From Minisyncoccota bacterium (lineage in GTDB: Bacteria > Patescibacteriota > Minisyncoccia > Phycocordibacterales > JBAYGS01), in the NCBI GenBank assembly GCA_041666545.1, contig JBAYGS010000006.1, positions 1,154 to 65,153 on the forward strand: a stretch of 64,000 bases of DNA, read 5' to 3'. This document shows positions 8,369 through 64,000 of the stretch, piece after piece. A model generated the notes under the pieces. The model was not told the DNA's origin and did no database searches. It saw only the letters and a program-made list of their open reading frames with translations. Both the position numbers and the translations under genes were made by a program. How positions within the stretch are numbered: position 1 is the stretch's first letter; every line of letters starts with the position of its first letter.

Positions 8369-9142
8369 CCCTTGTGTGGATAACTTACATAAGACGGTCT
8401 TACGCGTAAGACCGTCTTATGTTATCATCCGAGGATGTTTAGAGACCTCAGTTTTGCCCCTGGAGAATTTTATCATCTATACAACCGCGGAGCTGACAAG
8501 CGTGAAATATTTCTGGAACCTTACGACTACGCCCGATTCACCAAATTTTTATATCTAGCAAATAGTGTCTCCCCTGTTAATTTGCGCGAAACGCCCTCAA
8601 ATGCTTTCAGTTTCGTCAAAAACGATACCCTTGTCGATATTGGCGCTTACTGCCTCATGCCAAACCACTTCCATTTACTCGTCAGAGAAAAGTCTGATGG
8701 AAATATCACAAAATTTATGCGGAAACTTTTGACCTCGCATTCTAAATATTTTAATAAAAAACACAAACGCTCTGGGACACTTTTTGAGGGCCGCTTTAAA
8801 GCCAAGCATGTCAATGGTGATGATTATTTGAAATACCTGCTAGCCTACATCCACCTGAATCCCGTCAAATTAATCGACTCAAAGTGGAAGGAAGACGGAA
8901 TTAAGGATATTGAAAAAGCTAAAAAACACTTAACGAATTACAAACACTCGAGCTACCTGGATTATCTGAATTCAAATCGAGAAGAAGAGAAAATCTTAAA
9001 CAAAAACGGCTTTCCCGAGTATTTTGAAACAGCTAAGGGTTTTCAGTCAATGATTAACAACTGGTTAGACTACAAAAACCTAGATTTTTAGCCGTAGTTG
9101 TCTTGCACAAGGGAGCCCTATGCCATAGGGCTCCCTTGTGTG
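8369..9142 (+). mobile_element. IS200/IS605-family or RAYT-like unit: Y1 HUH transposase gene flanked by perfect palindromes and a 10-bp direct repeat CCCTTGTGTG
   Basis: 34-bp perfect palindrome at 8387-8420 (CATAAGACGGTCTTACG/CGTAAGACCGTCTTATG). 35-bp palindrome at 9106-9140. CCCTTGTGTG at 8369-8378 and again at 9133-9142. Confidence 0.45.
8435..9091 (+). CDS. IS200-like or REP-associated tyrosine transposase (Y1 HUH, COG1943 family)
   Basis: YHLYNRG near the N-terminus. HUH motif in AYCLMPNHFHLLV. Family-typical LFEGRFKAK, YIHLNPVK and SSY near the C-terminus. Confidence 0.8.
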   Translation: MFRDLSFAPGEFYHLYNRGADKREIFLEPYDYARFTKFLYLANSVSPVNLRETPSNAFSFVKNDTLVDIGAYCLMPNHFHLLVREKSDGNITKFMRKLLTSHSKYFNKKHKRSGTLFEGRFKAKHVNGDDYLKYLLAYIHLNPVKLIDSKWKEDGIKDIEKAKKHLTNYKHSSYLDYLNSNREEEKILNKNGFPEYFETAKGFQSMINNWLDYKNLDF

Positions 9143-14118: not shown

Positions 14119-14148
14119 ACAAAAACGAGCCCTTCGGCTCGTTTTTGT
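14119..14148 (-). terminator. Bidirectional-looking intrinsic terminator for the 14171..14974 gene
   Basis: ACAAAAACGAGCC-CTTC-GGCTCGTTTTTGT. Confidence 0.55.
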
Positions 14149-15078: not shown

Positions 15079-15200
15079 GGAACCCTTACGAATAGGGCAC
15101 ACGAATAAAGTATGCGAATAGCGAAACCACAAATACGCACACACGAATTCAGCTATTCGTGTCATTCGTCCTCATTCGTGTATTGGTGTCGTGTGCCAAA
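15079..15200. promoter_or_regulatory. Divergent promoter region carrying convergent arrays of ACGAAT (x4) and ATTCGT (x3) direct repeats
   Basis: ACGAAT at about 15088, 15102, 15114 and 15153. ATTCGT at about 15165, 15174 and 15183. 40-bp block ATTCGTGTCATTCGTCCTCATTCGTGTATTGGTGTCGTG. Related copies at 3944-3971, 21039-21080 and 21801-21853. Confidence 0.4.
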
Positions 15201-46289: not shown

Positions 46290-46395
46290 ACCCAGAGCAT
46301 AGCAAAATTGGCGGGCGTGAACAAATCTTGCGGAAATTCAAAAACCGTTCGCTATTGCGAACGGTTTTTGAATTTTAATTTTAGCTGAATCCTTT

Positions 46396-52853: not shown

Positions 52854-53270
52854 TTACTGGCTAAGACCCGTACTAGTCCTTTCCTTAAAATTATCGACCG
52901 AGAAACCGCCTGCTCCTTGCAAGAAGATAACCAGAGTGGCGATAGACAGCCCAAAATCTCTAATACCCAAGGCATTCCAACCAATCGTGAAAGTTATTCC
53001 GAACAAATGAAGCGCCAGAAGCAGAGCCACTGGCCGAGTGTAGGTACCGAGAATTAAAAGAACCGCTCCGACAATCTCAAACCACCCATTGAGTAAAACA
53101 AATTTGACGGCCGAGATTGGCGCGATTGAAATAAAACTGGGTAAAAAGGAAGTCCACTGAGTCGGGTTTGCCAACTGGCTGAAGCCGAACCACAGGAAAA
53201 CAATGGCTAAGCCGAAGCGCAAAATTACCGGCCCAGCTTTCTCCAAATTTTCAAATTTATTTGACTCCAT
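52854..53270 (-). CDS. DoxX-family membrane protein
   Basis: 138 aa with 4 TM helices. N-terminal region family-like (ILRFGLAIVFLWFG). Confidence 0.75.
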   Translation of the reverse strand: MESNKFENLEKAGPVILRFGLAIVFLWFGFSQLANPTQWTSFLPSFISIAPISAVKFVLLNGWFEIVGAVLLILGTYTRPVALLLALHLFGITFTIGWNALGIRDFGLSIATLVIFLQGAGGFSVDNFKERTSTGLSQ

Positions 53271-53280
53271 TGAAGTTTAG

Positions 53281-53694
53281 TTAATTTTTAAGAACGCCGA
53301 TTTTAAAACTTACGAGCTCCTCTGCCGGCTTGCTCTGCCCGCCGTGTTGGTTGTCAAAAGCGCTGGAACCATCAACCCCGCAAAGCGACAAAATTGCATC
53401 AGAACCTCCTGGGTGCCGTTCAATAAAAGATGTCACATCATAAACTCCCCCAGCAATAGCCACCCAGCAGCTTGCGCCGGAATTATGCCTCGCGACTTCC
53501 GCCAAAGTGTAGCCACCGGCAGAAATCGCACCTGAACCATCGCTAACAGTTCGGGTCGCCCCACCAGTGCCCATGCCCGAACCAAAAGCGTCGAGATTGG
53601 GCTTAGTCGCTTCCGACTTGATTACAATAACTAGACTGCCGATTACAAAAATGGCCAAGGCCAAAAAACCAATAGTCTTTTTAAAACAGGTCAT
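53281..53694 (-). CDS. Membrane-anchored cytochrome b5-like heme-binding domain protein
   Basis: YTLAEVARHNSGASCWVAIAGGVYDVTSFIERHPGG (HPGG motif). Confidence 0.6.
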   Translation of the reverse strand: MTCFKKTIGFLALAIFVIGSLVIVIKSEATKPNLDAFGSGMGTGGATRTVSDGSGAISAGGYTLAEVARHNSGASCWVAIAGGVYDVTSFIERHPGGSDAILSLCGVDGSSAFDNQHGGQSKPAEELVSFKIGVLKN

Positions 53695-53742
53695 AATTAA
53701 AATTGCGAACTAAGAATAACTAAAAAATTAATAAGGCCGGCG

Positions 53743-54141
53743 TCAGATTTTTGGCAAAATCCAACGACTGGAGATAGTATAAGACAAAAATCCCAATAGC
53801 CCTAGTTGAACTGCCGGAGTCAGGCCGACATTTAAAATTGGCACTATCGGCATCAGATCAGTGTAAGCCCAGCGGCCGGTGGCAAGAGCAAATTTTTCTA
53901 TTAGAACCGCCAAGATTAGACCCGGAATCGCAACCCCAAAACCGGCATGCTTAACTTTTGGATAAAAGATAAAAGGCCAGCAGATTATCGAGATAAAAAT
54001 TGCATCAAACAGCGTGGCCCGGAGCAAAATAAACTCGGTTATTGCCCCACCCTGATAATTGGCATACAAGAAAGCGTGCCAATTTTCCCAAATCAAATTT
54101 AAAATAAATCCCAGGACAAAAATTGCTAACAATTTTTTCAC
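53743..54141 (-). CDS. Membrane protein of unknown function
   Basis: 132 aa with 4 TM helices. Confidence 0.4.
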   Translation of the reverse strand: MKKLLAIFVLGFILNLIWENWHAFLYANYQGGAITEFILLRATLFDAIFISIICWPFIFYPKVKHAGFGVAIPGLILAVLIEKFALATGRWAYTDLMPIVPILNVGLTPAVQLGLLGFLSYTISSRWILPKI

Positions 54142-54154
54142 GGTATTACCTTAA

Positions 54155-54553
54155 CTAATTGCTAAAGTTAATCTCAAAAGGATACATGCCCATACCGCAA
54201 CTGCCCTGGAGACGGCCGGCTGATTGCAGACCCAAATCAATATCGGTTGAACCGCTTGTTGCCAGGAATTGGCTAATTTTTAAGCTCGGGATAATCACAG
54301 AAGCGGAACAGTCAAAAGTCCCGTTGGTATTGAAACGCAAAATCGTCGGTAGCCCAGCTTTAGCGTTACTAATTCTTGGCTGATAACCTCCCTTGGCGCG
54401 AATCTGGACAATTTGCACTCCATTTTCAATCGACACATTATTGGCTGGCAGACCGTTCTCCAGACTGCCATTTGAATTATTTTTGGCCAACGCAAAAGCA
54501 CCGATGATAAGAAGAACGGCAATTGAAATTGAAATGACTGTTGATTTCATCAT
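54155..54553 (-). CDS. Secreted cupredoxin-like domain protein (CGMGM-type, PF13473-like)
   Basis: Signal/TM helix. C-terminal ...GSCGMGMYPFEINF motif typical of the copper-locus cupredoxin-like family. Confidence 0.6.
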   Translation of the reverse strand: MMKSTVISISIAVLLIIGAFALAKNNSNGSLENGLPANNVSIENGVQIVQIRAKGGYQPRISNAKAGLPTILRFNTNGTFDCSASVIIPSLKISQFLATSGSTDIDLGLQSAGRLQGSCGMGMYPFEINFSN

Positions 54554-54554
54554 G

Positions 54555-54806
54555 TTAGAGACCGGAAACGCCTAACCTCTGTCTCAGGTAGCGCTTGCCC
54601 ATCCCAGATTTTAAAAATAATTCTCTCGCCTTGGCACGACTTTCATCAAGACAAGCTTCATAATATAACAATTCAAACGGAAGTCTGCTTTTTGTATAAT
54701 TTGAGCGTCCGGTATTATGTTGGTTAAGGCGTTTCCGAAGGTCACCGGTTGAACCCGTATAAAATGTACCGTCCTTCAAGCTTTTAATAAAATATGTGTA
54801 ATACAT
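54555..54806 (-). CDS. GIY-YIG nuclease-domain protein (start probably at MYYTYF, 54806)
   Basis: MYYTYFIKSLKDGTFYTGSTGDLRKRLNQHN is a canonical GIY-YIG core. The 54875 start would read through the MITE TIR. Confidence 0.75.
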   Translation of the reverse strand: MYYTYFIKSLKDGTFYTGSTGDLRKRLNQHNTGRSNYTKSRLPFELLYYEACLDESRAKARELFLKSGMGKRYLRQRLGVSGL

Positions 54807-54833
54807 AACCTTGCGGTCTCTAACAGGATTAAT

Positions 54834-54950
54834 CCCGTTAGAAATATTTTGTTGTGTTATGCGGCTCATCATCAATGTAATTTATTTAGCTAATATAGTT
54901 ACTTATATCTAATCAATCTGGCCATTTACTAATGGCCAATTTCTAACGGG
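54834..54950. mobile_element. MITE-like element copy 4 (117 bp, short form). TIRs are CCCGTTAGAAAT at 54834-54845 and ATTTCTAACGGG at 54939-54950
   Basis: Perfect TIRs. TGGCCATT-AGTA-AATGGCCA internal hairpin. No flanking duplication. A degenerate extra TIR TCTCTAACAGG lies at 54818-54828. Confidence 0.55.
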
Positions 54951-54951
54951 A

Positions 54952-55986
54952 CTAAAAGTTAAAAATTGGCGGGATTAAACCGACCACCACTAAACTGTTA
55001 ATCAGGTTAAATATAGCAAACAAAATCACGACCAGGCCAGCAGACTTAAAAAATATCCCTGACTTGGAGCTATTCTTGATGCTAAATGAACTAAAACTCA
55101 AAATTGCGAGAACTGGTAGAGTACCCAAGGCAAAGGAAAGCATGGTGAGCGCGCCAGATAGAAAATTTCCGGTTGAAAGCGCAAAAATCTGCATCGATTG
55201 GGTAAAACCGCACGGCAAAAAGAAAGTGGCGATACCGACCAGAGCCGGCGTCAGGGTGTGATTAATTTTCGCCACACCTAAAGCATGCTTAGAGATAAAT
55301 TTTGGCGCGGTCAGCTGAAACCTTTTGGCGAAATGAAAGGTATCGAGTAAATTAATACCGAGCACGAGCATCACCAAGCCAATAATTAAATTCAGAACAA
55401 AGGTGGCCGAGGTACTCAGGGTAAAAGCCGAACCAATGGCCCCGATTACTCCTCCAAGAATAAAGAAGGAAATTATTCTTCCGAGATGAAATAAAATTTG
55501 CGGTCGAACTTTATCCCCTTCTTTGGCAAAAGTAGCCGACATTGAGAGAACTAACCCACCAACCACCGCCATACAACTTGAAAGTGAGGCGATGACCCCG
55601 ATAACAAAAGCCGTGCCGAAAGACACTTTGCTCGCACTCACCAAATTCACAATTCCCATTTTTTGCAGAGCCACAAAAAGCACTGCGAAGCCCAAAGCTA
55701 CCGGAACTGCGATTTTAAAATCACCCCAATCGCCAGTCTTGGTTTGTTTCTCAACTGACAAGCTGTAACCTCGGGGAGCCAAGATTTTGGAAAGCTCTTC
55801 GGTAATGACCGCTTCGGCTTTATCGCCAAAATCACCAACAACCTCAACAGTAAAATGCTTGAGGTCAGCTTTTACTTTTGAAATATTGGGCAAATCATTA
55901 AGCTCACCCTCAATTAAAAGCACGCAAGATGCGCAGTGCATGCCATTAACGTGAAAATTGTAAATTTGTGATGCCATAAAACACAA
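54952..55986 (-). CDS. HMA (heavy-metal-associated) domain fused to a DsbD_2/CcdA-like polytopic membrane domain
   Basis: GMHCASC metal-binding motif. TM Cys motifs SSCMAVVGG and FLPCGFTQ. Confidence 0.6.
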   Translation of the reverse strand: MCFMASQIYNFHVNGMHCASCVLLIEGELNDLPNISKVKADLKHFTVEVVGDFGDKAEAVITEELSKILAPRGYSLSVEKQTKTGDWGDFKIAVPVALGFAVLFVALQKMGIVNLVSASKVSFGTAFVIGVIASLSSCMAVVGGLVLSMSATFAKEGDKVRPQILFHLGRIISFFILGGVIGAIGSAFTLSTSATFVLNLIIGLVMLVLGINLLDTFHFAKRFQLTAPKFISKHALGVAKINHTLTPALVGIATFFLPCGFTQSMQIFALSTGNFLSGALTMLSFALGTLPVLAILSFSSFSIKNSSKSGIFFKSAGLVVILFAIFNLINSLVVVGLIPPIFNF

Positions 55987-56008
55987 CCATTATACAGGAA
56001 ACTTACTG

Positions 56009-56042
56009 TCTGACTACTTTAACGGCTCATATGGTGTATATG
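56009..56042. promoter_or_regulatory. 14-bp-stem perfect palindrome (TTAACGGCTCATAT-GGTGT-ATATGAGCCGTTAA) between two minus-strand genes
   Basis: Seen directly. No T-run follows, so it is not a classic terminator. Confidence 0.4.
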
Positions 56043-56076
56043 AGCCGTTAACCACAACTGAGAGCTGCCTAGGTCT

Positions 56077-56343
56077 CTACTCCCCTCTCAAACTGGAGTT
56101 GTGCATCCAGACCATATAGGAACCGAAAATCCAAGCGAAGACCAAGACGTAGACCGCCCCGAGAACAATACTTCCCCAACTGCCCCAGACAAAACCAGGC
56201 AAGGTTTCAAAAAGTTGGCGATGAAGCTCCGTCCCGACCGCTGTCCGCCAAGGCAAGTAACCACCCAAAAGGCAGAGAACATAAATCACCTCGACTCCCA
56301 AAATACACTTCCAAATGTAAGACTTCAGTGATAATTTTCCCAT
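56077..56343 (-). CDS. Small membrane protein
   Basis: 88 aa with 2 TM helices. Confidence 0.3.
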   Translation of the reverse strand: MGKLSLKSYIWKCILGVEVIYVLCLLGGYLPWRTAVGTELHRQLFETLPGFVWGSWGSIVLGAVYVLVFAWIFGSYMVWMHNSSLRGE

Positions 56344-56409
56344 TTTTTAATATTAAGCTGATAATACCGATAAAATCCCCACACGTTTACCGTGCGAGGA
56401 TTTTAGAAA

Positions 56410-56658
56410 TTACTCCAAATCTTTCCTCCTGGCCTCGAATTCCGCCTTGTCGATCTCACCCTTGGCATAACGCTCTTTGAGAATATCAAGCGCCTTTTTA
56501 CTGCCACTTGAACTACCGCCGTTATTCTTGCCTGAAACTTCCTTGACCGCCCAGACAATCAAAAAAAATATCGCCACCCAGAAAATAATCATCATAAAAC
56601 CCCCGAGAAATCCCATACCTCCGCCATAAAACCCATCGCCAAAATAATATCCCATCAT
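56410..56658 (-). CDS. SHOCT-domain small membrane protein
   Basis: Gly-rich N-terminus and a TM helix. C-terminus ALDILKERYAKGEIDKAEFEARRKDL matches SHOCT. Confidence 0.6.
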   Translation of the reverse strand: MMGYYFGDGFYGGGMGFLGGFMMIIFWVAIFFLIVWAVKEVSGKNNGGSSSGSKKALDILKERYAKGEIDKAEFEARRKDLE

Positions 56659-56698
56659 ATTTTTATTTAACTAGTAATTTTTGATAATTATACACCAA

Positions 56699-57691
56699 CT
56701 AAATCCCGCAGCCACTCGACTGGCGAGATGGTGTCACCTGAGCTGCAGGAGCACTCACACCCGCACCAACACCGCAACCACTTCCGCCTCCAGAACTTGA
56801 GGGCGCACTCGCTTGTGCGGCAATCTTGTCATAGCCCGAAGCGCTGGAATAATTGAGCCCCAGAATTTCTTGCGGATTAACTTTCGACCAATCAACACCT
56901 TTGTTCTTCAGGTGTGTGGCAATCGTCAGATAATTATCCGGAAACCAGTAGGAATTGACCGAGAGCGCCGTCCGCCACATCTCCTCTTCACCGACACCTT
57001 GCGATGCCATTAACTCCAAGAGTCCGAGCATCGCCATCCCGTGATTGCAATCCGGGAAATGAGTTGAATTGTTGCAACACGGGCGGTAAATCCCCCGCGA
57101 AACCTTATCAACCAACGCTTGCTGTTCCGGCGTCAGACTAAAGAACAGGTGCCGACTGTAATGATCCATCGGGTTGCCTAAGGCCACCGTCCAACCGCCG
57201 GTTGAAGCAAAATTTCCCGCGCCACCGTAAGCCGGATAGGTCATTTCGCCAGAATCGAGAATCGGATTTTTGCTGGCAAGACCAAGCGCCCAGAAAAGAT
57301 TTAAGAGGTAACCAGCATTATCTTGAGTAATCTTTAATTTCCCCGAACTCTGACCGGAAAGCATTTTTTCATACTCGGCCGGGAAACCGCCCCCGCGCGC
57401 CCGATAAAGCGCCCGGAATTTTTCGCCATCAATCGCCCCGACACTCGTAAGTTTCGCCCCCAAATCGTCCCAAACAACCGGCAGCTCGACCCCTGCTTCA
57501 GGCAGGACTTGGGCTTCGAGCACCGAAACTGTGCGAGCAGTTTCGGTGCTCTCCCCTTCAGTTGACTGGCTGGGAGAAGTCGCCACCGGCTCGGCCGTGT
57601 AGATAATCGCCCCGCCGACAATTATCGCCGAAAGCAAGATACAGACGCCGAGAAAATCTCTAGGACTTTGCTTCTGTTGATTATTTTCCAT
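56699..57691 (-). CDS. Exported hypothetical protein with a Cys/His/Met-rich motif (CCNNSTHFPDCNHGM)
   Basis: 330 aa with an N-terminal TM anchor. Confidence 0.4.
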   Translation of the reverse strand: MENNQQKQSPRDFLGVCILLSAIIVGGAIIYTAEPVATSPSQSTEGESTETARTVSVLEAQVLPEAGVELPVVWDDLGAKLTSVGAIDGEKFRALYRARGGGFPAEYEKMLSGQSSGKLKITQDNAGYLLNLFWALGLASKNPILDSGEMTYPAYGGAGNFASTGGWTVALGNPMDHYSRHLFFSLTPEQQALVDKVSRGIYRPCCNNSTHFPDCNHGMAMLGLLELMASQGVGEEEMWRTALSVNSYWFPDNYLTIATHLKNKGVDWSKVNPQEILGLNYSSASGYDKIAAQASAPSSSGGGSGCGVGAGVSAPAAQVTPSRQSSGCGI

Positions 57692-57694
57692 AAG

Positions 57695-58066
57695 TTAGCA
57701 ACAATTTTTTAATTTCTCTTCAATGTCCTGCCGGCTTTCGCGAGTTACTTGAACATCAGACCGACCTTTGAAACCAAACCAGAGCAAAAGATACCCAACA
57801 ATCGCCAATCCGAAATATAGCCAGGCAAAATTGAGTAAAGCGATCATCGCCGCGAAACCAAACGGAATAGATATTAATTTCCACCACATTTCTCGATCGC
57901 TAATTTTCCGACTCAAGGTATAGGAGATACCGACCGCACTTCCACCCATCAGCATCGCAATAAACGGCTCGCTGACCGGATAGTCAAACCCCTTCAGAAA
58001 AAGAAGTGTGAGCCAAGTCAGACTGACGAGCGCGCAAATTGGACAGATTTTTTTTAGAATTTGCAT
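57695..58066 (-). CDS. Membrane protein with CPIC motif
   Basis: 123 aa with 3 TM helices. Confidence 0.35.
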   Translation of the reverse strand: MQILKKICPICALVSLTWLTLLFLKGFDYPVSEPFIAMLMGGSAVGISYTLSRKISDREMWWKLISIPFGFAAMIALLNFAWLYFGLAIVGYLLLWFGFKGRSDVQVTRESRQDIEEKLKNCC

Positions 58067-58067
58067 A

Positions 58068-58847
58068 TTAGATGAATAAGATTAAAAGACCGATAATCAA
58101 CATCGCCAAGCCTGCCCAAAGATGAACATCTTGTAGTTGCGTCCTCCGCCAGTCTTTGACTTTATCAATCAAGATTGGACTGGAAGCGATAATCAACACC
58201 GCGACCAAAGGCACAATCAAAATCAGATTGTAGAGCAAGAGATAGCCAAAACCGGAAAAGTAAGTCAGCGAATCATGAAGCAAACCGATAACCATTAGGT
58301 ACGGCCCGCCCATGCAAGGAAATTGGCAGAGCCCAACAAGAATTCCCAGACCAAACGCCGCCGGCAAGGAAGCGACGTTGATGAGCCGGCTCATTGCCCC
58401 GTGCGCCGAATCAGGGATTTTCAAGCGAATCGGAAACTTCGGGAAAATCGCGCCGAGCAAATTCAAAAGGCCGAAAGCGATTAACATCCCCGCCCCTAAC
58501 TTCCCCATAAAGTGGGGCACGCTGAAGATATGGAGCACTTGCAGAAGCCCGATGCCAATTGCGAAATACGCCGCGAAAATTCCGAAGATATAGAGTCCGC
58601 CAATTTGTAGAATTTTCTTGCGTGTGAGTTGCAGACCGAATAGAAATGCGATCGTAATCAAAAGAATCGAGAACGAACATGGATGCACGCTGTCTAAGAG
58701 TGCCGAGAAGAAAACCAGAGGCAAAAGCCAAACCCCGCCCTGACTCACACTCCATAGGAACGACGAAAAGCCCGGGCTGAATTTCAGAATAACAACTCCG
58801 ATGATTGCGAGCAGGACTATTCCAATTGTAATTTTAAGTTTTTTCAC
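58068..58847 (-). CDS. DsbD/CcdA-like thiol-disulfide transmembrane protein (GTG start)
   Basis: TM Cys motifs SVHPCSFS and LCQFPCMGGPY. Polytopic. Confidence 0.55.
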   Translation of the reverse strand: MKKLKITIGIVLLAIIGVVILKFSPGFSSFLWSVSQGGVWLLPLVFFSALLDSVHPCSFSILLITIAFLFGLQLTRKKILQIGGLYIFGIFAAYFAIGIGLLQVLHIFSVPHFMGKLGAGMLIAFGLLNLLGAIFPKFPIRLKIPDSAHGAMSRLINVASLPAAFGLGILVGLCQFPCMGGPYLMVIGLLHDSLTYFSGFGYLLLYNLILIVPLVAVLIIASSPILIDKVKDWRRTQLQDVHLWAGLAMLIIGLLILFI

Positions 58848-58896
58848 AGAATTTTTTATTTTTAATTTTCATTTTTAGATTTCAATTTTTCATTTT

Positions 58897-59502
58897 CTAT
58901 GGCTTAACTAGCGCCTTGATTTCCAACTGGATCGCATTCCCTGCCTCATCCTCCAAATTAATAAACCGACCAATCACCCCGACTCCGGCCGGACCGTGAG
59001 CATTTGGGTCATAAATCGCCCGAATAACGCGACTCTCCCCCGCCTTAATGATTTCATTGGCCGGCGGAACATAACCCATTCCCGGCATACCGAAAGGCCC
59101 CTTGGTACTGCCGTCTTCTCTAATCAATATAGCTTTAGTACACATGCAGGAAGTCGTGACCTTTTTGAGATTAATGTCGTTGGCAGTTGGATTGGTAATC
59201 GTAAAATCCTTTTCCACATTTCCATCTTTCATCGAGATCGTGCCGAAATCATAGAAGATCTCCGGAGCATAGAGCGTACTAGTAGCTGTATCGTACCCGA
59301 TGGCAGGATGAAAACTTGGGTCAACATCCCCCACTGATGCAGTATTGGTATTTCCGGTATTTTTTACATTCTTCGGATAGCCCCATACCAGAATAAATAC
59401 CAGAATCAATAACGTGAGAACCGCAATAATCACTATTTTTAATTTCATAATTGAATAATTAGAGAAACATAATTTAATAACAAATAGCAACAAGCCCGCC
59501 AA
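58897..59502 (-). CDS. DUF1573-domain protein
   Basis: YDFGTI...FTITNPTANDINLKKVTTSCMCT resembles the DUF1573 signature (SCGCT). Confidence 0.6.
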   Translation of the reverse strand: MAGLLLFVIKLCFSNYSIMKLKIVIIAVLTLLILVFILVWGYPKNVKNTGNTNTASVGDVDPSFHPAIGYDTATSTLYAPEIFYDFGTISMKDGNVEKDFTITNPTANDINLKKVTTSCMCTKAILIREDGSTKGPFGMPGMGYVPPANEIIKAGESRVIRAIYDPNAHGPAGVGVIGRFINLEDEAGNAIQLEIKALVKP

Positions 59503-59553
59503 AAATGAGCGGGCGCGCCGAAAAACGAAAAACCCCTCGTTTTTCGGCGCTAA

Positions 59554-59976
59554 CTAAAAAGCCGGACTATTCTCGAGAAGCGAGAGCCAGCGAATTATTT
59601 TCCTTTGAGCGGCAACCCTAGGCGGACAATCGGCAAAACTTCTGGCTAAAACCAGATTAGGCGAACTGAAAATTGTCGCTTGACGAATTATCAAAAGGGC
59701 CAAGACCAAAAGCGCAAAGAGGAACGCGAACACACTAAACAAACTGGAACCCACCGGCACATTAATAAATGCCAGATAGGCGGAGATATGATGAGCGACC
59801 AGCGCCAAAGCATTTTGCGGGCAAAGCGACACTTCACCGGTAGCGAACAAACAGCCGTTTCCTCCTTCGCCGACGCCCTGATGCATCATTACCGAAAAAC
59901 TCAAAACCGCAACCGCCATAAAAGCAATTAAAACCAGAATGGATAAGACTTTTTGCGATTTAATCGAAGCTGTCAT
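59554..59976 (-). CDS. Membrane protein of unknown function
   Basis: 140 aa with 3 TM helices. Lies immediately downstream of copA. Confidence 0.4.
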   Translation of the reverse strand: MTASIKSQKVLSILVLIAFMAVAVLSFSVMMHQGVGEGGNGCLFATGEVSLCPQNALALVAHHISAYLAFINVPVGSSLFSVFAFLFALLVLALLIIRQATIFSSPNLVLARSFADCPPRVAAQRKIIRWLSLLENSPAF

Positions 59977-59985
59977 AATTCTATT

Positions 59986-62214
59986 CTACACCTTTTTAGC
60001 ATTTAGTCTAAGAGAATTCACCACCACCGAAACACTCGAAAGCGCCATCGCCAAACTGGCGAAAATCGGGTTCATCAGAATACCAAAGACAGGATAAAGC
60101 GCACCCATCGCGACCGGAATCAAAATCACATTGTAGCCGAAAGCCCAAAACAAATTCTGCTTGATGGTCCGCATCGTCGCCTTGGAAAGCGCGATGGTCG
60201 AAGCGATGGAGCGGATGTCTTTGTTGATAAGAGTAATATCGGCCGCCTCGATCGCCACATCCGTCCCGCTTCCCATCGCGATACCGACATCGGCGGCGGC
60301 AAGAGCCGGCGCGTCATTGATGCCGTCGCCAATCATCGCCACTTTTCGGCCAGCCATTTGGAGTTTGCGAATTTCACTTTCTTTATCCCCCGGCAAAACT
60401 TCGGCTAAAATTTCTGTAATGCCAAGCGCTCCGCCAATCGCCTTGGCGGTTCGCGGATTATCTCCGGTAATCATCACCACTTTCAAACCCAGCTTTTGGA
60501 GCGCCATTACTCCGGCCTTGGCCGAATCTTTGGCCGTATCGGCAACCGCGATAAGCGCCAAAAGTTCCCGTCCGCGCGAGAGGAACATCACGGTCTTGCC
60601 TTCGTCCTCCAGTTTCACTACATCTTTTTCGTGTTCGGCGAGTGAAATTCCTCTCGCCGTCAGCAAACGCCGGTTACCAAAAGCAAACTCCTGACTTTCA
60701 ATCTCACCAACAATCCCCTGCCCGGGCACCGCTTGGAATTTCTCAACCTTAAGCAAACCGAGTTTTTGTTCCTCACTGCCTTTCAAAATCGCTTCGGCGA
60801 GTGAATGCTCCGACCCTTTTTCAAGCGAAGCGGCAAAAGTCAGCGCCCGCTTGGAATCAAGTCCGCCAAAAGCGACAACCTCGGCGAGTTTCGGTGTCCC
60901 ATTAGTCAAAGTGCCGGTCTTGTCAAAAACCACCGTGTCAATTTTGTGCGCCAACTCCAAACTTTCCGCATCCTTAATCAAAATCCCGTGAGTCGCGCCT
61001 TTGCCGGTGCCGACCATAATCGCCGTCGGAGTTGCGAGCCCCATCGCGCACGGGCAAGCAATAATCAAAACCGCAATTAAATTGAGAAGCGCGTAAGTCA
61101 CGGCCGGCGACGGTCCCCAGACATACCAAACGACAAAAGTCAGAACCGCGAGCATCATCACAATCGGCACAAAATATGACGACACCAAATCAGCCAGCCG
61201 TTGGATTGGCGCTTTCGAGCCTTGAGCTTCTTCCACCAATTTAATAATTTGCGCCAAGAGAGTGTCCTTCCCAACCTTATCAGCCCGAAAAGTAAAAGTG
61301 CCGGTTTTGTTTAAAGTCGCGCCAAAAACTTTATCCCCCGTCGCTTTGTCCGCCGGCAAGGATTCGCCGGTCACCATTGATTCGTCAACCGAAGAAGCCC
61401 CCTCGACAATCACGCCGTCAACCGGAATTTTCTCGCCGGGCCTGACTCGCACCAAATCACCAACTATCACCTGCTCAATCGGCAAATCAATCTCTTTTCC
61501 ATCACGCAGAACCCGCGCGGTTTTGGCCTGAAGTCCAATCAGTTTGCGAATTGCCTCTCCCGTCCCCAATTTCGCCCGTTCCTCAAAATATCGCCCGAGC
61601 AAAATCAACCCGATAATCACGACCGCCACATCAAAATACGGTTCGGGCTTGATGCCAAGCGCCAAAACCGTCTCGGGAAAAACCGTAATAAAAGCCGAGT
61701 AAAGAAACGCCACCGTCGTGCCAATCATGACCAAAGTATCCATATTAGCAGTACGGTGTTTAAGCGCCGGCCAAGCCGCCCGATAGAAAATCGAGCCGAT
61801 CCAAAACTGAACCGGCAGAGCCAGAATAAGTTGCAGCCAGAAATTTTTGAGAATCGCAGGCGCCGTCTCCATCAAACCGGGGAAACTTCCCCAAACAATC
61901 AAAGCGCCCAAAACCAAACTGAAAATCACTTTGTTTCGCAAAACTTTGAGATTTTTAAGCCGCCGGACTTTCGCCTCGTCTTCGGTTTCAATTTCCTGAC
62001 TCAAGCGAGCTTGGTAACCGGCACCCTCAACGGCCTTGCCGATGATTTCATCAGTCACCCTTTCGGACTCAAACTCCACCGTGGCCTTGTTCGTGGCGAG
62101 ATTGACCGCGGCCCTCTTCACCCCGGGGACTTTTTGCAGCGACTGTTCAATCAACATCACGCACGAAGCGCAATGCATCCCCTTAATCGCAAAAGTTTTT
62201 TTAGTTGTTTCCAT
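59986..62214 (-). CDS. copA: Copper-translocating P1B-type ATPase
   Basis: N-terminal HMA (GMHCASC). CPC ([12 protein letters not shown]). [15 protein letters not shown]. Confidence 0.95.
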
Positions 62215-62266
62215 ATTTTCAGCAAGGTTCGACCTTGAATCTTCAAAAAGGTCGAACCTTAAATTT

Positions 62267-62632
62267 TTAAGCTACGACTACGATTTTCCCGTGATACATA
62301 TTCATCGCGCAGGAATATCGATACTCACCGACTTTAGTTGGTTTAATCTCGATTGAGACAGTTTGGTTCAGGGGTAGCTCGCGCTTGATTTTGAAGTCTG
62401 GTATCACCACCTCGGAAAGACACTCGGTCGGGTCGGTTCGTTTGAAATTAAGCGTGGTCGTCTGATTAACCGGAATCGAAATCACTTCCGGCGTGTAACC
62501 GCCGAACACAGAAATGTCCGCCGAATTACCTAAAACTTTGACCGCCTTACCTTTTTTCATTAAGAAAAACCAATATATAAAGCCGATAGCAATTAGACCG
62601 GCGATTATCACAATTATTTTATCCGGAGTCAT
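62267..62632 (-). CDS. Cupredoxin-like domain protein (CAMNM-type)
   Basis: N-terminal TM helix. C-terminal [16 protein letters not shown]. Confidence 0.65.
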
Positions 62633-62637
62633 AAAAA

Positions 62638-62895
62638 TTATTTACGTTTTAAATTATACACTTTCAAAATCTCCTTTACAGCCTTTTTGTCTTTCCCGTT
62701 CTTTATTTGATCTATCAAACAACTGCCCAGATGACTTTCCATCAAGGCATCCTCGACGCCGGAGAGTGCCTGTTTTACGGCCGAAGTTTGGGTAATCACA
62801 TCAATACAATACTTGTCATTTTCAAGCATACTCTGTAATCCCCTCACCTGCCCCTCAATAATTTTTAATCTTTTTACTAGCTTAGCTTTGTCCAT
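62638..62895 (-). CDS. csoR: CsoR/RcnR-family copper-sensing transcriptional repressor
   Basis: LKIIEGQVRGLQSMLENDKYCIDVITQTSAV...HLGSC (C-H-C metal ligands). True start is the internal Met at 62895. The upstream part of ORF 62638..63096 overlaps the RT gene. Confidence 0.8.
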   Translation of the reverse strand: MDKAKLVKRLKIIEGQVRGLQSMLENDKYCIDVITQTSAVKQALSGVEDALMESHLGSCLIDQIKNGKDKKAVKEILKVYNLKRK

Positions 62896-62903
62896 GCAGA
62901 CAG

Positions 62904-62926
62904 TATATACCCCTAGGGGGTATATA
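62904..62926. promoter_or_regulatory. CsoR-type operator: GC-tract pseudo-palindrome TATATACCCCTAGGGGGTATATA, 8 nt upstream of the csoR ATG
   Basis: Matches the known CsoR operator architecture (ATACCC-N-GGGGGTAT). Confidence 0.6.
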
Positions 62927-62927
62927 G

Positions 62928-63938
62928 TCAAGTAGCTATGCCGGCCAAGAACTTTCTCAGCTTCCATGTATTCCCATGCCCCAACAATCCCAAATAAGAT
63001 TGCCGAGTTTCCGGCTTGTCGCTCAGAACCGACTTCTTGAACATTCTTCGCTTCGTCGCCGTCCGCAAAACCCGATGGTCGGGGAAATTCACCCAACCGA
63101 GAAAATCAACTCCTGAAACCAGAGTTTTGATACTGACTTTGTCCGGATGAAGTTCAAGCTTTAACCTCTCTCGCAGGAATAGTACGATATATCGTAACAT
63201 TGTTTCCAGTTTGCCTTTGTCCGAATCAAGAACCACAAAATCATCAGCGTAGCGGATATAATATTTCACTTTCAGTTTATGCTTCACAAACTGGTCAAAT
63301 TCGTTCATATAAATGTTCACCCAAAGTTGCGAAGTAAGATTACCCAAGGGTAGACCTTTTTTAATCTCAGCCATGGCGTAGATTGGACTTTCGGTTTGGA
63401 AACTCTCGATGACTCGTTCCAAAAGCCCGAGAGTGTCACGGTCACAAATTTGTTTCGCCAAAATCCTGAGTAAAACCTCGTGGTCAATTGAGGCAAAAAA
63501 CTTTCGGACATCGCACTTCAAAACCCAGCAAGTCCGACTGTTGTTTCTCGAGACTTTTCGACCAAAATCTCTAAACCGATTTATCGCTCGATGTGTTCCC
63601 TTGAAATTCCGGCAAGAGTAGGAATCATGGATAAACTTTTTATCGAAATAAGGATACAAAATCCGATAGATAGCGTGGTGCAATAATCTATCTCGCACTG
63701 TTGCCTTGTGAATATTACGCGGTTTCGGGTCAGCAATTTTGAAATGTTTGTATGGCCCGTGTCGGTATGTCTTGGTTCGCAAGTCCTCATGTAGACAAAA
63801 AATATTTTTGGAAAGATTCAGGGAAAATTCAGCAACATCATTTTTGTTTTTCCTGCCACGCACAAATTCACGCCATGCACCAAATAAATTTTCCATAGAT
63901 ATGATATCGTTATAGCCATGATTCATGCTCCCCATCAT
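62928..63938 (-). CDS. Reverse transcriptase of the diversity-generating retroelement (DGR) type
   Basis: RT motifs 1-7 are present. YIRYADDFVV (YADD). Motif 4 reads GLPLGNLTSQLWVNIY, with the DGR-typical [ILV]GxxxSQ in place of the group-II QGxxxSP. The size (336 aa) fits DGR or retron RTs. Confidence 0.75.
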   Translation of the reverse strand: MMGSMNHGYNDIISMENLFGAWREFVRGRKNKNDVAEFSLNLSKNIFCLHEDLRTKTYRHGPYKHFKIADPKPRNIHKATVRDRLLHHAIYRILYPYFDKKFIHDSYSCRNFKGTHRAINRFRDFGRKVSRNNSRTCWVLKCDVRKFFASIDHEVLLRILAKQICDRDTLGLLERVIESFQTESPIYAMAEIKKGLPLGNLTSQLWVNIYMNEFDQFVKHKLKVKYYIRYADDFVVLDSDKGKLETMLRYIVLFLRERLKLELHPDKVSIKTLVSGVDFLGWVNFPDHRVLRTATKRRMFKKSVLSDKPETRQSYLGLLGHGNTWKLRKFLAGIAT

Positions 63939-64000
63939 ATTACCCCCCCCCGAGAATTACCACAGGTAATTCTCAAACTGAAAGAAACTTATCGTGTCTG

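Follow-up and report, generated by a model that had tools for sequence, protein, structure and literature searches.

Two kinds of diversity-generating retroelement (DGR) are the closest described counterparts of the locus analysed here: the DGR of Bordetella phage BPP-1, whose parts lie in the order mtd-avd-TR-brt (TR, template repeat), and the DGRs of the Candidate Phyla Radiation (CPR), 90% of which have architecture B3, TR-(avd)-RT, where RT is the reverse transcriptase (Wu et al. 2018, PMC5758913). How DGR mutagenesis is naturally turned on, limited or silenced is largely unknown, especially in the uncultured CPR, where DGRs are most abundant. The locus lies at the edge of a 64,000-nucleotide stretch of contig JBAYGS010000006.1 from a Minisyncoccota bacterium (assembly GCA_041666545.1); this whole stretch is referred to below as the window. 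The element is a DGR whose avd gene carries, close to its start codon, a simple-repeat tract that is conserved among relatives and that probably acts as a slippage-prone gate on the Avd protein.

Short repeats also define two other groups of known systems. Contingency loci include the poly-G/C tracts of Neisseria pilC and hmbR, the poly-G genes of Campylobacter, the poly-C of the Bordetella fim promoter and the (TA)n repeat of the divergent Haemophilus hif promoter. Sites of programmed frameshifting or transcriptional slippage include dnaX, the A-runs of insertion sequence (IS) elements and the +1 shifts of tRNA-Pro at CCC-C.

The retroelement and its cassette

The RT gene starts close to the window edge, with 62 nt between its start and position 64000, as the sequence-only reading of the window had it. 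DNA beyond the edge was read from contig L081 (ENA k141_931567, 178.5 kb), one of three public contigs that carry P0001, a 322-aa version of the RT that is 100% identical to the window RT and begins at the later start (63896) used by public gene callers. Over its final 11,000 bases the window matches the reverse complement of L081 without a single difference, so that L081 represents the same DNA. A window coordinate is 73897 minus the L081 coordinate, and positions above 64000 are extrapolated. The main parts of the cassette are as follows.

62928-63938, minus strand: DGR reverse transcriptase gene, 336 aa, with a match to RVT_1 and with bRT, the RT of BPP-1, as best PDB relative
63327-63347, minus strand: RT motif 4, LGNLTSQ (DGR-type [I/L]GxxxSQ), aa 198-204, aligning with IGSLTSQ of bRT
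63240-63251, minus strand: RT catalytic motif YADD, aa 230-233, aligning with YMDD of bRT
63918-63920, plus strand: ATG of avd, the exact antisense of RT codon His7 (CAT)
63918-64307, plus strand (L081 9590-9979, minus strand): avd, 129 aa, inverted, matching PF22296 bAvd; its first 83 nt (63918-64000) are inside the window
63943-63951: C9 homopolymer (G9 on the RT-sense strand), avd codons T-P-P-R, 25 nt after the avd ATG
64328-64445, extrapolated (L081 9452-9569): template repeat, 118 nt, of which 31 are A
64800-64917, extrapolated (L081 8980-9097): variable repeat (VR), 118 nt, codons 189-228 of the target open reading frame (ORF)
L081 8415-9143: target gene, a 242-codon ORF with the VR at its 3′ end

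The RT ORF matches Pfam RVT_1 with an E-value of 4.4e-24. The top hit of a PDB sequence search is 8ub7_A (E 4.3e-40), the aligned part of which is 100% identical to brt of BPP-1, and group II intron RTs follow at 3.6e-26 and weaker. A DGR-type RT had been proposed from the sequence alone on the strength of LGNLTSQ and YADD, and both motifs are present. Phage relatives of the RT are found in BPP-1-like phages, Vibrio phage VP585, ANMV-1, and Faecalibacterium and crAss-like phages, which are classical DGR carriers (BPP-1, VP585 and ANMV-1 among them). NCBIfam models of group II, retron and defence RTs all score the window RT below their curated cut-offs (group II TIGR04416, 152.8 bits against 300; Drt3a, 74 against 200; Retron St85, 47.5 against 235), and an Rfam search around the gene found neither group II intron nor retron RNA. 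A public record of the exact 336-aa product was not found; a histidine at position 7, as in the relatives, favours the predicted start at 63938 over that at 63896.

The TR and VR are direct repeats with 18 mismatches, all 18 of which fall at adenines of the copy at L081 9452, identifying that copy as the template. With bRT the closest solved relative, rival models below their cut-offs, intron and retron RNA not found, and a TR/VR pair and Avd adjoining the RT, membership in the DGRs is established and the assignment is as good as certain. There is a negligible probability that the RT is of a different class (retron, group II intron or Abi/DRT defence RT) and no more than DGR-like, because labels such as 'retron-type' or 'group II intron RT' on relatives in source databases, and weak NCBIfam and PADLOC matches to such models, are set against an adenine-specific repeat pair and an adjacent Avd that are diagnostic of a DGR.

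The avd product scores 45.1 bits against PF22296 bAvd (cut-off 40; hmmscan E 1.6e-11), with the match beginning at residue 29, and a sequence search of the PDB with Avd gave no match. The part of avd inside the window translates to MIHAPHHITPPRELPQVILKLKETYRV. The gene diverges from that of the RT, the two 5′ ends overlapping by 21 nt, so the cassette has the order target(VR) - TR - (avd, inverted) - RT. Avd, TR and the VR-bearing target all lie within about 1.5 kb past position 64000, with the target gene about 0.9 kb past the window. The sequence-only reading had placed Avd, TR and target just past the window and advised a search there for repeats differing at adenines; TR and target are indeed outside and the search yields the pair, but avd already begins inside, on the plus strand at 63918.

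Its further statement that the window itself holds no TR/VR pair agrees with a self-BLAST for adenine-biased repeats, which found none. When adenines are ignored, the real TR matches the window at no more than 39 of 87 non-A positions, a chance-level score, as opposed to 87 of 87 for the true VR. A remote target within the window, including the C-terminus of the giant surface protein, which the earlier reading had itself found unconvincing, was rejected on these grounds.

A 10-pair stem-loop lies 12 nt after the TR (L081 9581-9603), a position at which DGR RNAs commonly carry an Avd-binding stem-loop (bioRxiv 10.1101/2023.10.23.563531). After the target gene, 69 nt past the end of the VR, a GC-rich 14-pair hairpin followed by a T-run (L081 9166-9197) looks like the terminator of that gene; a GC-rich inverted repeat downstream of the VR is present in only 34% of DGRs (PMC5758913). 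The target protein has no Pfam domain match and belongs to a family with 622 homologues. The AlphaFold model of a 57%-identical homologue is of low confidence (predicted local distance difference test 60.8), and the fold search with it was uninformative as to a C-type lectin fold. A match to the Rfam RT-9 motif in the target-TR spacer (L081 9246-9359; extrapolated 64538-64651, minus strand) was rejected at 26.6 bits and E 0.23 (gathering threshold 46.1); searches of 17 and 10 related loci did not reproduce it, and it is treated as chance.

The NCBI copy of this strain's target protein (P0121) ends inside the VR (...AVRVRW) at a contig end, and this break is no more than a hint of VR diversification. 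Assemblies tend to break at both hypervariable sites, at the VR in this strain and at the G-run in one relative (L106).

Related loci and activity of the family

Homologues of the RT at 60-70% identity number in the thousands, nearly all of them from metagenome-assembled genomes of Patescibacteria, with Candidatus Paceibacterota among the hosts. An adenine-specific TR/VR pair in the same layout is present in 61 of 83 related loci; in these, about 400 nt separate the end of the TR from the RT, and the VR is upstream of the TR by about 450 nt. The avd gene is inverted between TR and RT in 77 of the 83; in the remaining six the contig stops shortly upstream of the RT. The inverted-avd layout is shared by more distant relatives in IMG/VR, at 49-56% RT identity. 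The DGR of the window thus has the published B3 architecture, and the cassette itself is of a type already known for CPR.

The family is active. Ten independent assemblies of the P0100 lineage have an identical RT and differ almost only in the VR, for which they hold at least six alleles that differ at adenine-rich TR positions.

A conserved repeat tract at the avd-RT junction

The C9 run and a hairpin that abuts it lie within the first 20 codons of avd. The sequence-only reading had recognized both as features upstream of the RT; they are instead part of the 5′ coding leader of avd, and the run, which does exist, sits at 63943-63951, two bases from the 63945-63953 given for it. In windows simulated with a first-order Markov model, about 0.5 C/G runs of at least 9 nt are expected, and the run is unremarkable from the window alone. 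Its significance rests on conservation in relatives and not on window statistics.

Avd-RT junctions of relatives were aligned on the RT N-terminus, 75 loci having enough upstream DNA. A tract is present at the junction in all 75, as C6-13 or, in four loci, as a (GA)n/(TC)n repeat of 17-23 nt in place of the G/C run; lengths of 9 (24 loci) and 10 (21 loci) are the most frequent. Across 1.15 Mb of loci, 69 G/C runs of 8 or more are at the junction and 11 are elsewhere, where such runs are about 6-fold rarer. The eleven off-junction runs (8-12 nt; for example L011 19277, L020 13053 and L040 12781) might mark other slippage-controlled genes or second DGR copies.

The tract lies 2-52 nt from the RT start (mode 13 nt), and it follows the avd N-terminus, not the RT start. 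Around it, no fixed-distance flanking motif was found beyond the boundary bases. The replacement of poly-C by (TC)n implies that repetitiveness is what is conserved, rather than poly-proline coding, G-quadruplex potential or ribosome binding. A Shine-Dalgarno role for the G-run was considered and found unlikely, given that the genome rarely uses such sites and that the spacing is not fixed (2 to 52 nt). The tract is absent from the IMG/VR relatives at 49-56% RT identity, which argues for an addition within the Patescibacteria clade and not for a part of the core DGR mechanism. A conserved tract at the avd-RT junction is not mentioned in the searchable text of PMC5758913, and none is described in the literature searched on DGR or Avd together with repeats or slippage, a search outside which some relevant literature falls.

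Start codon and reading frame of avd

The codon CAT at RT residue 7, opposite the putative avd start, occurs in 55 of 81 relatives. Frame analysis covered the 52 loci that have both the conserved ATG and the tract. The ATG frame is open as far as the tract in all 52, compared with 7 and 18 of 52 for the other two frames. About 22 stops would be expected in these ATG-to-tract leaders from how often the relevant codons occur elsewhere in the RT genes, and none is seen (P(0) about 1e-10, relatedness ignored). In the IMG/VR relatives that have no tract, avd reads in frame from the same ATG. From the open leaders and this straight read-through it is concluded, on sequence grounds, that the ATG at 63918 is the likely start of avd and that the tract falls within a short leader at the Avd N-terminus, before helix 1.

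The frame on the far side of the tract is another matter. Only 8 of the 52 loci have the ATG in frame with the avd core; the offset is 1 in 24 loci and 2 in 20, and a tract length of 9 or 12 would bring the ATG into frame in 29. The 9-nt tract of the window is in frame with the ATG at 63918. When any ATG, GTG or TTG is allowed, an in-frame start exists upstream of the tract in 24 of 75 loci, only within 21 nt after the tract (mostly TTG) in another 24, and nowhere in 27. Past the tract, essentially all loci keep an intact core ORF of 113-134 codons, and none of the 27 without a start is an exception. Loci of the L081-type group have no possible avd start after the tract.

Gene callers miss avd or call only fragments of it in L107-L109 and L115, where the tract is out of frame. 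The gene is likely under-annotated in this clade, and annotators should expect avd calls that look frameshifted or are missing. In 20 relatives (for example L026, L029, L073 and L078) there is no in-frame ATG, GTG or TTG for the RT between the tract and the conserved N-terminus, and the RT frame stays open across the G-run; in these relatives the tract may belong to the RT reading frame as well. In L041, RT and avd are both in frame with upstream ATGs at a tract length of 9.

Variation in tract length

Tract length differs among close relatives, and in some lineages between assemblies with identical RT DNA.

P0026 lineage: G9, G11, G11, G12 and G12, with 0 RT differences in 990 nt and at most 4 in the left flank
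P0028 lineage, identical RT DNA: G10 in three assemblies, G6 in one
P0100 lineage, identical RT: G10 in nine assemblies, G8TG in one, with the same total length
P0013 lineage: G8 in 3/3 assemblies
P0081 lineage: G10 in 3/3 assemblies

The G12 copies of P0026 arise from a T-to-G change beside a G11 run, so that their total length equals that of G11 plus T. Eight more loci were recovered when metagenomes were scanned for the hairpin and flanks of the sub-group to which the window belongs, and tracts of this sub-group are 9, 10 or 11 long; one G10 sequence is nested in a G11 clade with 2-3% flank divergence. Judged from these sequences, the tract appears to be the most variable site outside the VR, and sequencing noise may account for part of the variation.

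Hairpin and promoter-like signals

Three further sequence features adjoin the tract or the avd start.

63952-63974: perfect hairpin with a 10-bp stem and a 3-nt loop, abutting the tract and encoding avd residues E-L-P-Q-V-I-L; folding energy -12.7 kcal/mol
63937-63942, minus strand: TAATAT, -10-like, following the G-run immediately on the RT-sense strand; candidate element of an RT promoter
63902-63910, plus strand: TGaTATCGT, extended -10-like, 7 nt upstream of the avd ATG and within RT codons 10-13; candidate avd promoter

The hairpin, GAGAATTACC-ACA-GGTAATTCTC with its arms at 63952-63961 and 63965-63974, had been described exactly from the sequence alone. Perfect hairpins with stems of at least 10 bp are a common type here, with about 20 distinct ones in the window against about 0.5 expected. 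Next to the tract of related loci, hairpins are enriched (minimum free energy of -6 kcal/mol or lower in 44%, compared with 19% of controls; p about 2e-8), and the stem shows compensatory changes between L081 and L069 (GAGAATTACC/GGTAATTCTC against GAGAAGCACC/GGTGCTTCTC). As a universal partner of the tract the hairpin was rejected, since fewer than half of the loci have one, and it is treated as accessory, for example as a stimulator of frameshifting or pausing.

On the RT side, TAnnnT directly follows the tract in 21 of 75 loci (28%), against a per-position background of 1.5%, and the RT start is 7 nt further on in 11 of the 21. On the avd strand, the full motif TGaTATCnT-N7-ATG is present in 24 of 81 loci, the window included. 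The codons of the RT beneath it are biased: ATC encodes Ile12 in 75% of cases against a background of 28%, and Asp11 is GAT in 40, with no GAC among the top five codons, against a GAT background of 62%. These patterns suggest back-to-back promoters that would give leaderless or short-leader mRNAs for avd and RT. If the promoters are real, the tract would also lie within the spacer of the RT promoter. A Shine-Dalgarno-like motif precedes 2-4 of the 29 genes called on L081 (window 53000-64000 and beyond), the DGR target having AGGAG, and such scarce use fits leaderless starts and argues against the G-run as a ribosome-binding site.

Proposed mechanism and alternative explanations

In the proposed mechanism, the RT and a pentamer-forming Avd would copy the TR RNA into cDNA with mis-copying of template adenines, and the mutated cDNA would replace the VR at the 3′ end of the target gene. 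The tract would be a slippage-prone gate between the start codon and the core of avd, so that Avd, and hence mutagenesis, would be available only when tract length brings ATG and core into frame. Replication slippage would produce heritable on and off states, as in contingency loci, and slippage of RNA polymerase or the ribosome on the run could add a low constitutive level of Avd, a component suggested by the VR turnover in P0100 with an out-of-frame tract. In the genome of the window, with its in-frame tract of 9, the element would be 'on'. As the G-run abuts TAATAT 4 nt before the RT start, tract length may also tune RT transcription.

That the tract gates Avd by slippage is regarded as rather probable from the sequence comparisons. 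We infer that the frame state would control the Avd level, likewise the level at which switching would occur (DNA, RNA or ribosome) and the promoters. A broader scheme is put forward tentatively, with less confidence than an even chance would warrant: a DGR under a stochastic, heritable repeat switch, in which a single tract would set both the frame of Avd and the spacing of the RT promoter. Diversification would be kept off in most cells of these ultra-small bacteria, with rare slippage releasing bursts of target variation, and the arrangement would have arisen within the Patescibacteria clade at least twice, with different repeats.

Several observations weigh against a slippage gate. The tract is G9 in 3/3 assemblies of the strain studied here. 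Short-read assemblies can misstate the length of a homopolymer, and among the differences close to the tract some are substitutions that resemble sequencing noise; in addition, all the locus statistics disregard kinship among loci. In 35 loci, a TTG, GTG or ATG in the right frame follows the tract within 21 nt and is possibly the real start, and the argument from frame is moot there. In-frame loci amount to 15%, below the one third expected from random drift, and this deficit calls for an extra assumption such as selection for 'off' or a bias towards expansion. Finally, the tract of P0100, which has clear VR turnover, is by our reading out of frame in all ten assemblies. The 'off' state is consequently not absolute, and slippage at the RNA level or rare 'on' cells would be needed.

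The P0100 result is also an argument for the most credible of the alternatives, which is itself doubtful: that the tract is a constitutive recoding site, at which RNA polymerase slips or tRNA-Pro shifts on CCC-C with help from the hairpin, and which serves as a throttle that keeps Avd low at any DNA length. An active DGR with all ten assemblies out of frame (nine G10, one G8TG) fits this reading, as do the frequency of both offsets (24 and 20 of 52) and a consensus tract length that is stable in most lineages. In about a third of loci, the run on the avd mRNA is followed at once by a stable hairpin, the classical layout of a frameshift stimulator. The same two offsets, however, leave no single programmed shift direction that fits, and a programmed shift in one direction was rejected for this reason. 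The hairpin is missing in more than half of the loci, and DNA-level length differences between otherwise identical sequences do exist. The (TC)n variants are good substrates for replication slippage, and dinucleotide repeats of this kind are poor substrates for slippage by RNA polymerase or the ribosome, which counts against recoding.

It is unlikely, and somewhat more so than recoding, that the G-run serves the RT, as a promoter spacer or upstream promoter part or as a G-rich ribosome-binding leader, with avd starting after the tract and the frame relations incidental. The signals on the RT side fit such a role: the TAnnnT hexamer immediately behind the run in 21 of 75 loci, 11 of which have their RT start 7 nt further on, the modal distance of 13 nt from tract to RT start, and the window's own G9-TAATATG, where the run is 4 nt ahead of the RT ATG. 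A TTG soon after the tract on the avd side, in 31 loci, could supply the avd start. Yet the hexamer is confined to 28% of loci, the tract keeps to the avd N-terminus and is anything from 2 to 52 nt away from the RT start, Shine-Dalgarno motifs are scarce (2-4 of 29 genes), and in the L081-type group no avd start is possible after the tract. The leader ORF that is open in 52 of 52 loci would be left unexplained. A role for the RT is compatible with a switch of avd and does not exclude it.

Less probable still is a functionless tract, that is, a poly-proline-coding remnant or an inherited mutational hotspot whose length differences are assembly errors; a lone C9 is not improbable in 64 kb, locus kinship inflates the counts and some assemblies have single-base oddities beside the run, but uninterrupted runs persist across RTs of 60-70% identity whose flanks have diverged by up to 30%, in a sub-clade the position is taken by another repeat, (TC)n, all of the other 1.15 Mb together contain about 6-fold fewer such runs, and consensus differences of 2-4 nt are unlikely to be base-calling noise.

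If the tract were irrelevant, the locus would be one more well-formed B3-type CPR DGR. If the tract does gate Avd by slippage, it would offer an on/off marker of DGR activity that can be read from sequence in metagenomes, and it would explain how cells escape continuous self-mutagenesis of a beneficial variant. Two hypermutation mechanisms would then be wired in series.

Other features of the window

Downstream of the RT gene, the minus strand carries a putative copper operon with the following genes.

62638-62895, minus strand: CsoR-family repressor (Pfam Trns_repr_metal)
62267-62632, minus strand: cupredoxin
59986-62214, minus strand: CopA-type ATPase

A perfect palindrome, TATATACCCC-TAG-GGGGTATATA, occupies 62904-62926, within the 32 nt that separate the RT stop (62928) from the repressor gene, and looks like the CsoR operator of the copper operon, unrelated to the DGR. 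One gene caller extended CsoR back into the RT gene, probably wrongly.

Elsewhere, a direct repeat of 39-47 nt is present in three copies with 0-3 mismatches (15154-15200, 21039-21085 and 21813-21853). The roughly 20 perfect inverted repeats with stems of at least 10 bp and loops of 3-8 nt (for example 912-938, 2476-2503, 8391-8418, 9110-9136, 14120-14147, 20679-20706 and 46341-46368) are probably intrinsic terminators. About 8 kb past the window end, at L081 1878-2040, lie two adjacent tRNA-like direct repeats of 76 nt that are 75% alike.

Comparison with known systems

The DGR of BPP-1 resembles that of the window in its RT of about 330 aa with [I/L]GxxxSQ and YxDD motifs, its Avd helper, its TR of about 120 nt with AAC-rich adenines and its VR at the 3′ end of the target ORF. 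Both have a stem-loop just downstream of the TR (L081 9581-9603 in the window cassette), where the RNA of the bRT system has the Avd-binding one. Unlike in BPP-1, avd of the window cassette is inverted between TR and RT, with the result that the RNA 3′ of the TR is antisense to avd, and its leader holds a homopolymer tract. The element is chromosomal, judged by its neighbour genes, and not phage-borne, and its target has no recognizable Mtd or C-type lectin signature.

With the B3 DGRs of CPR (PMC5758913) the gene order and orientation are identical and the host is likewise one of the Patescibacteria. The target is small and lacks known domains, as in the unclassified VR classes, and in cassette composition there is no difference.

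Programmed frameshift and transcriptional slippage sites share with the tract a slippery homopolymer that is followed, in many loci, by a stable mRNA hairpin, and they too allow an active element to have out-of-frame DNA. They differ in that the direction of the shift is not constant here, the run is of C/G and not of A/U, and some loci have a dinucleotide repeat.

In every sequence-level criterion applied, the tract resembles simple-repeat contingency loci. As in those loci, an uninterrupted repeat of 8-13 G/C, or a dinucleotide repeat, lies between a putative start codon and the functional part of a gene in a divergent promoter region. A G/C run can slip from a length of about 8, which the C9 of the window exceeds. 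Its length differs among near-identical genomes, and many genomes are sampled out of frame with the downstream ORF intact. What sets the tract apart from these loci is the gene that it would gate, which is not a surface antigen but part of a second, targeted hypermutation machine.

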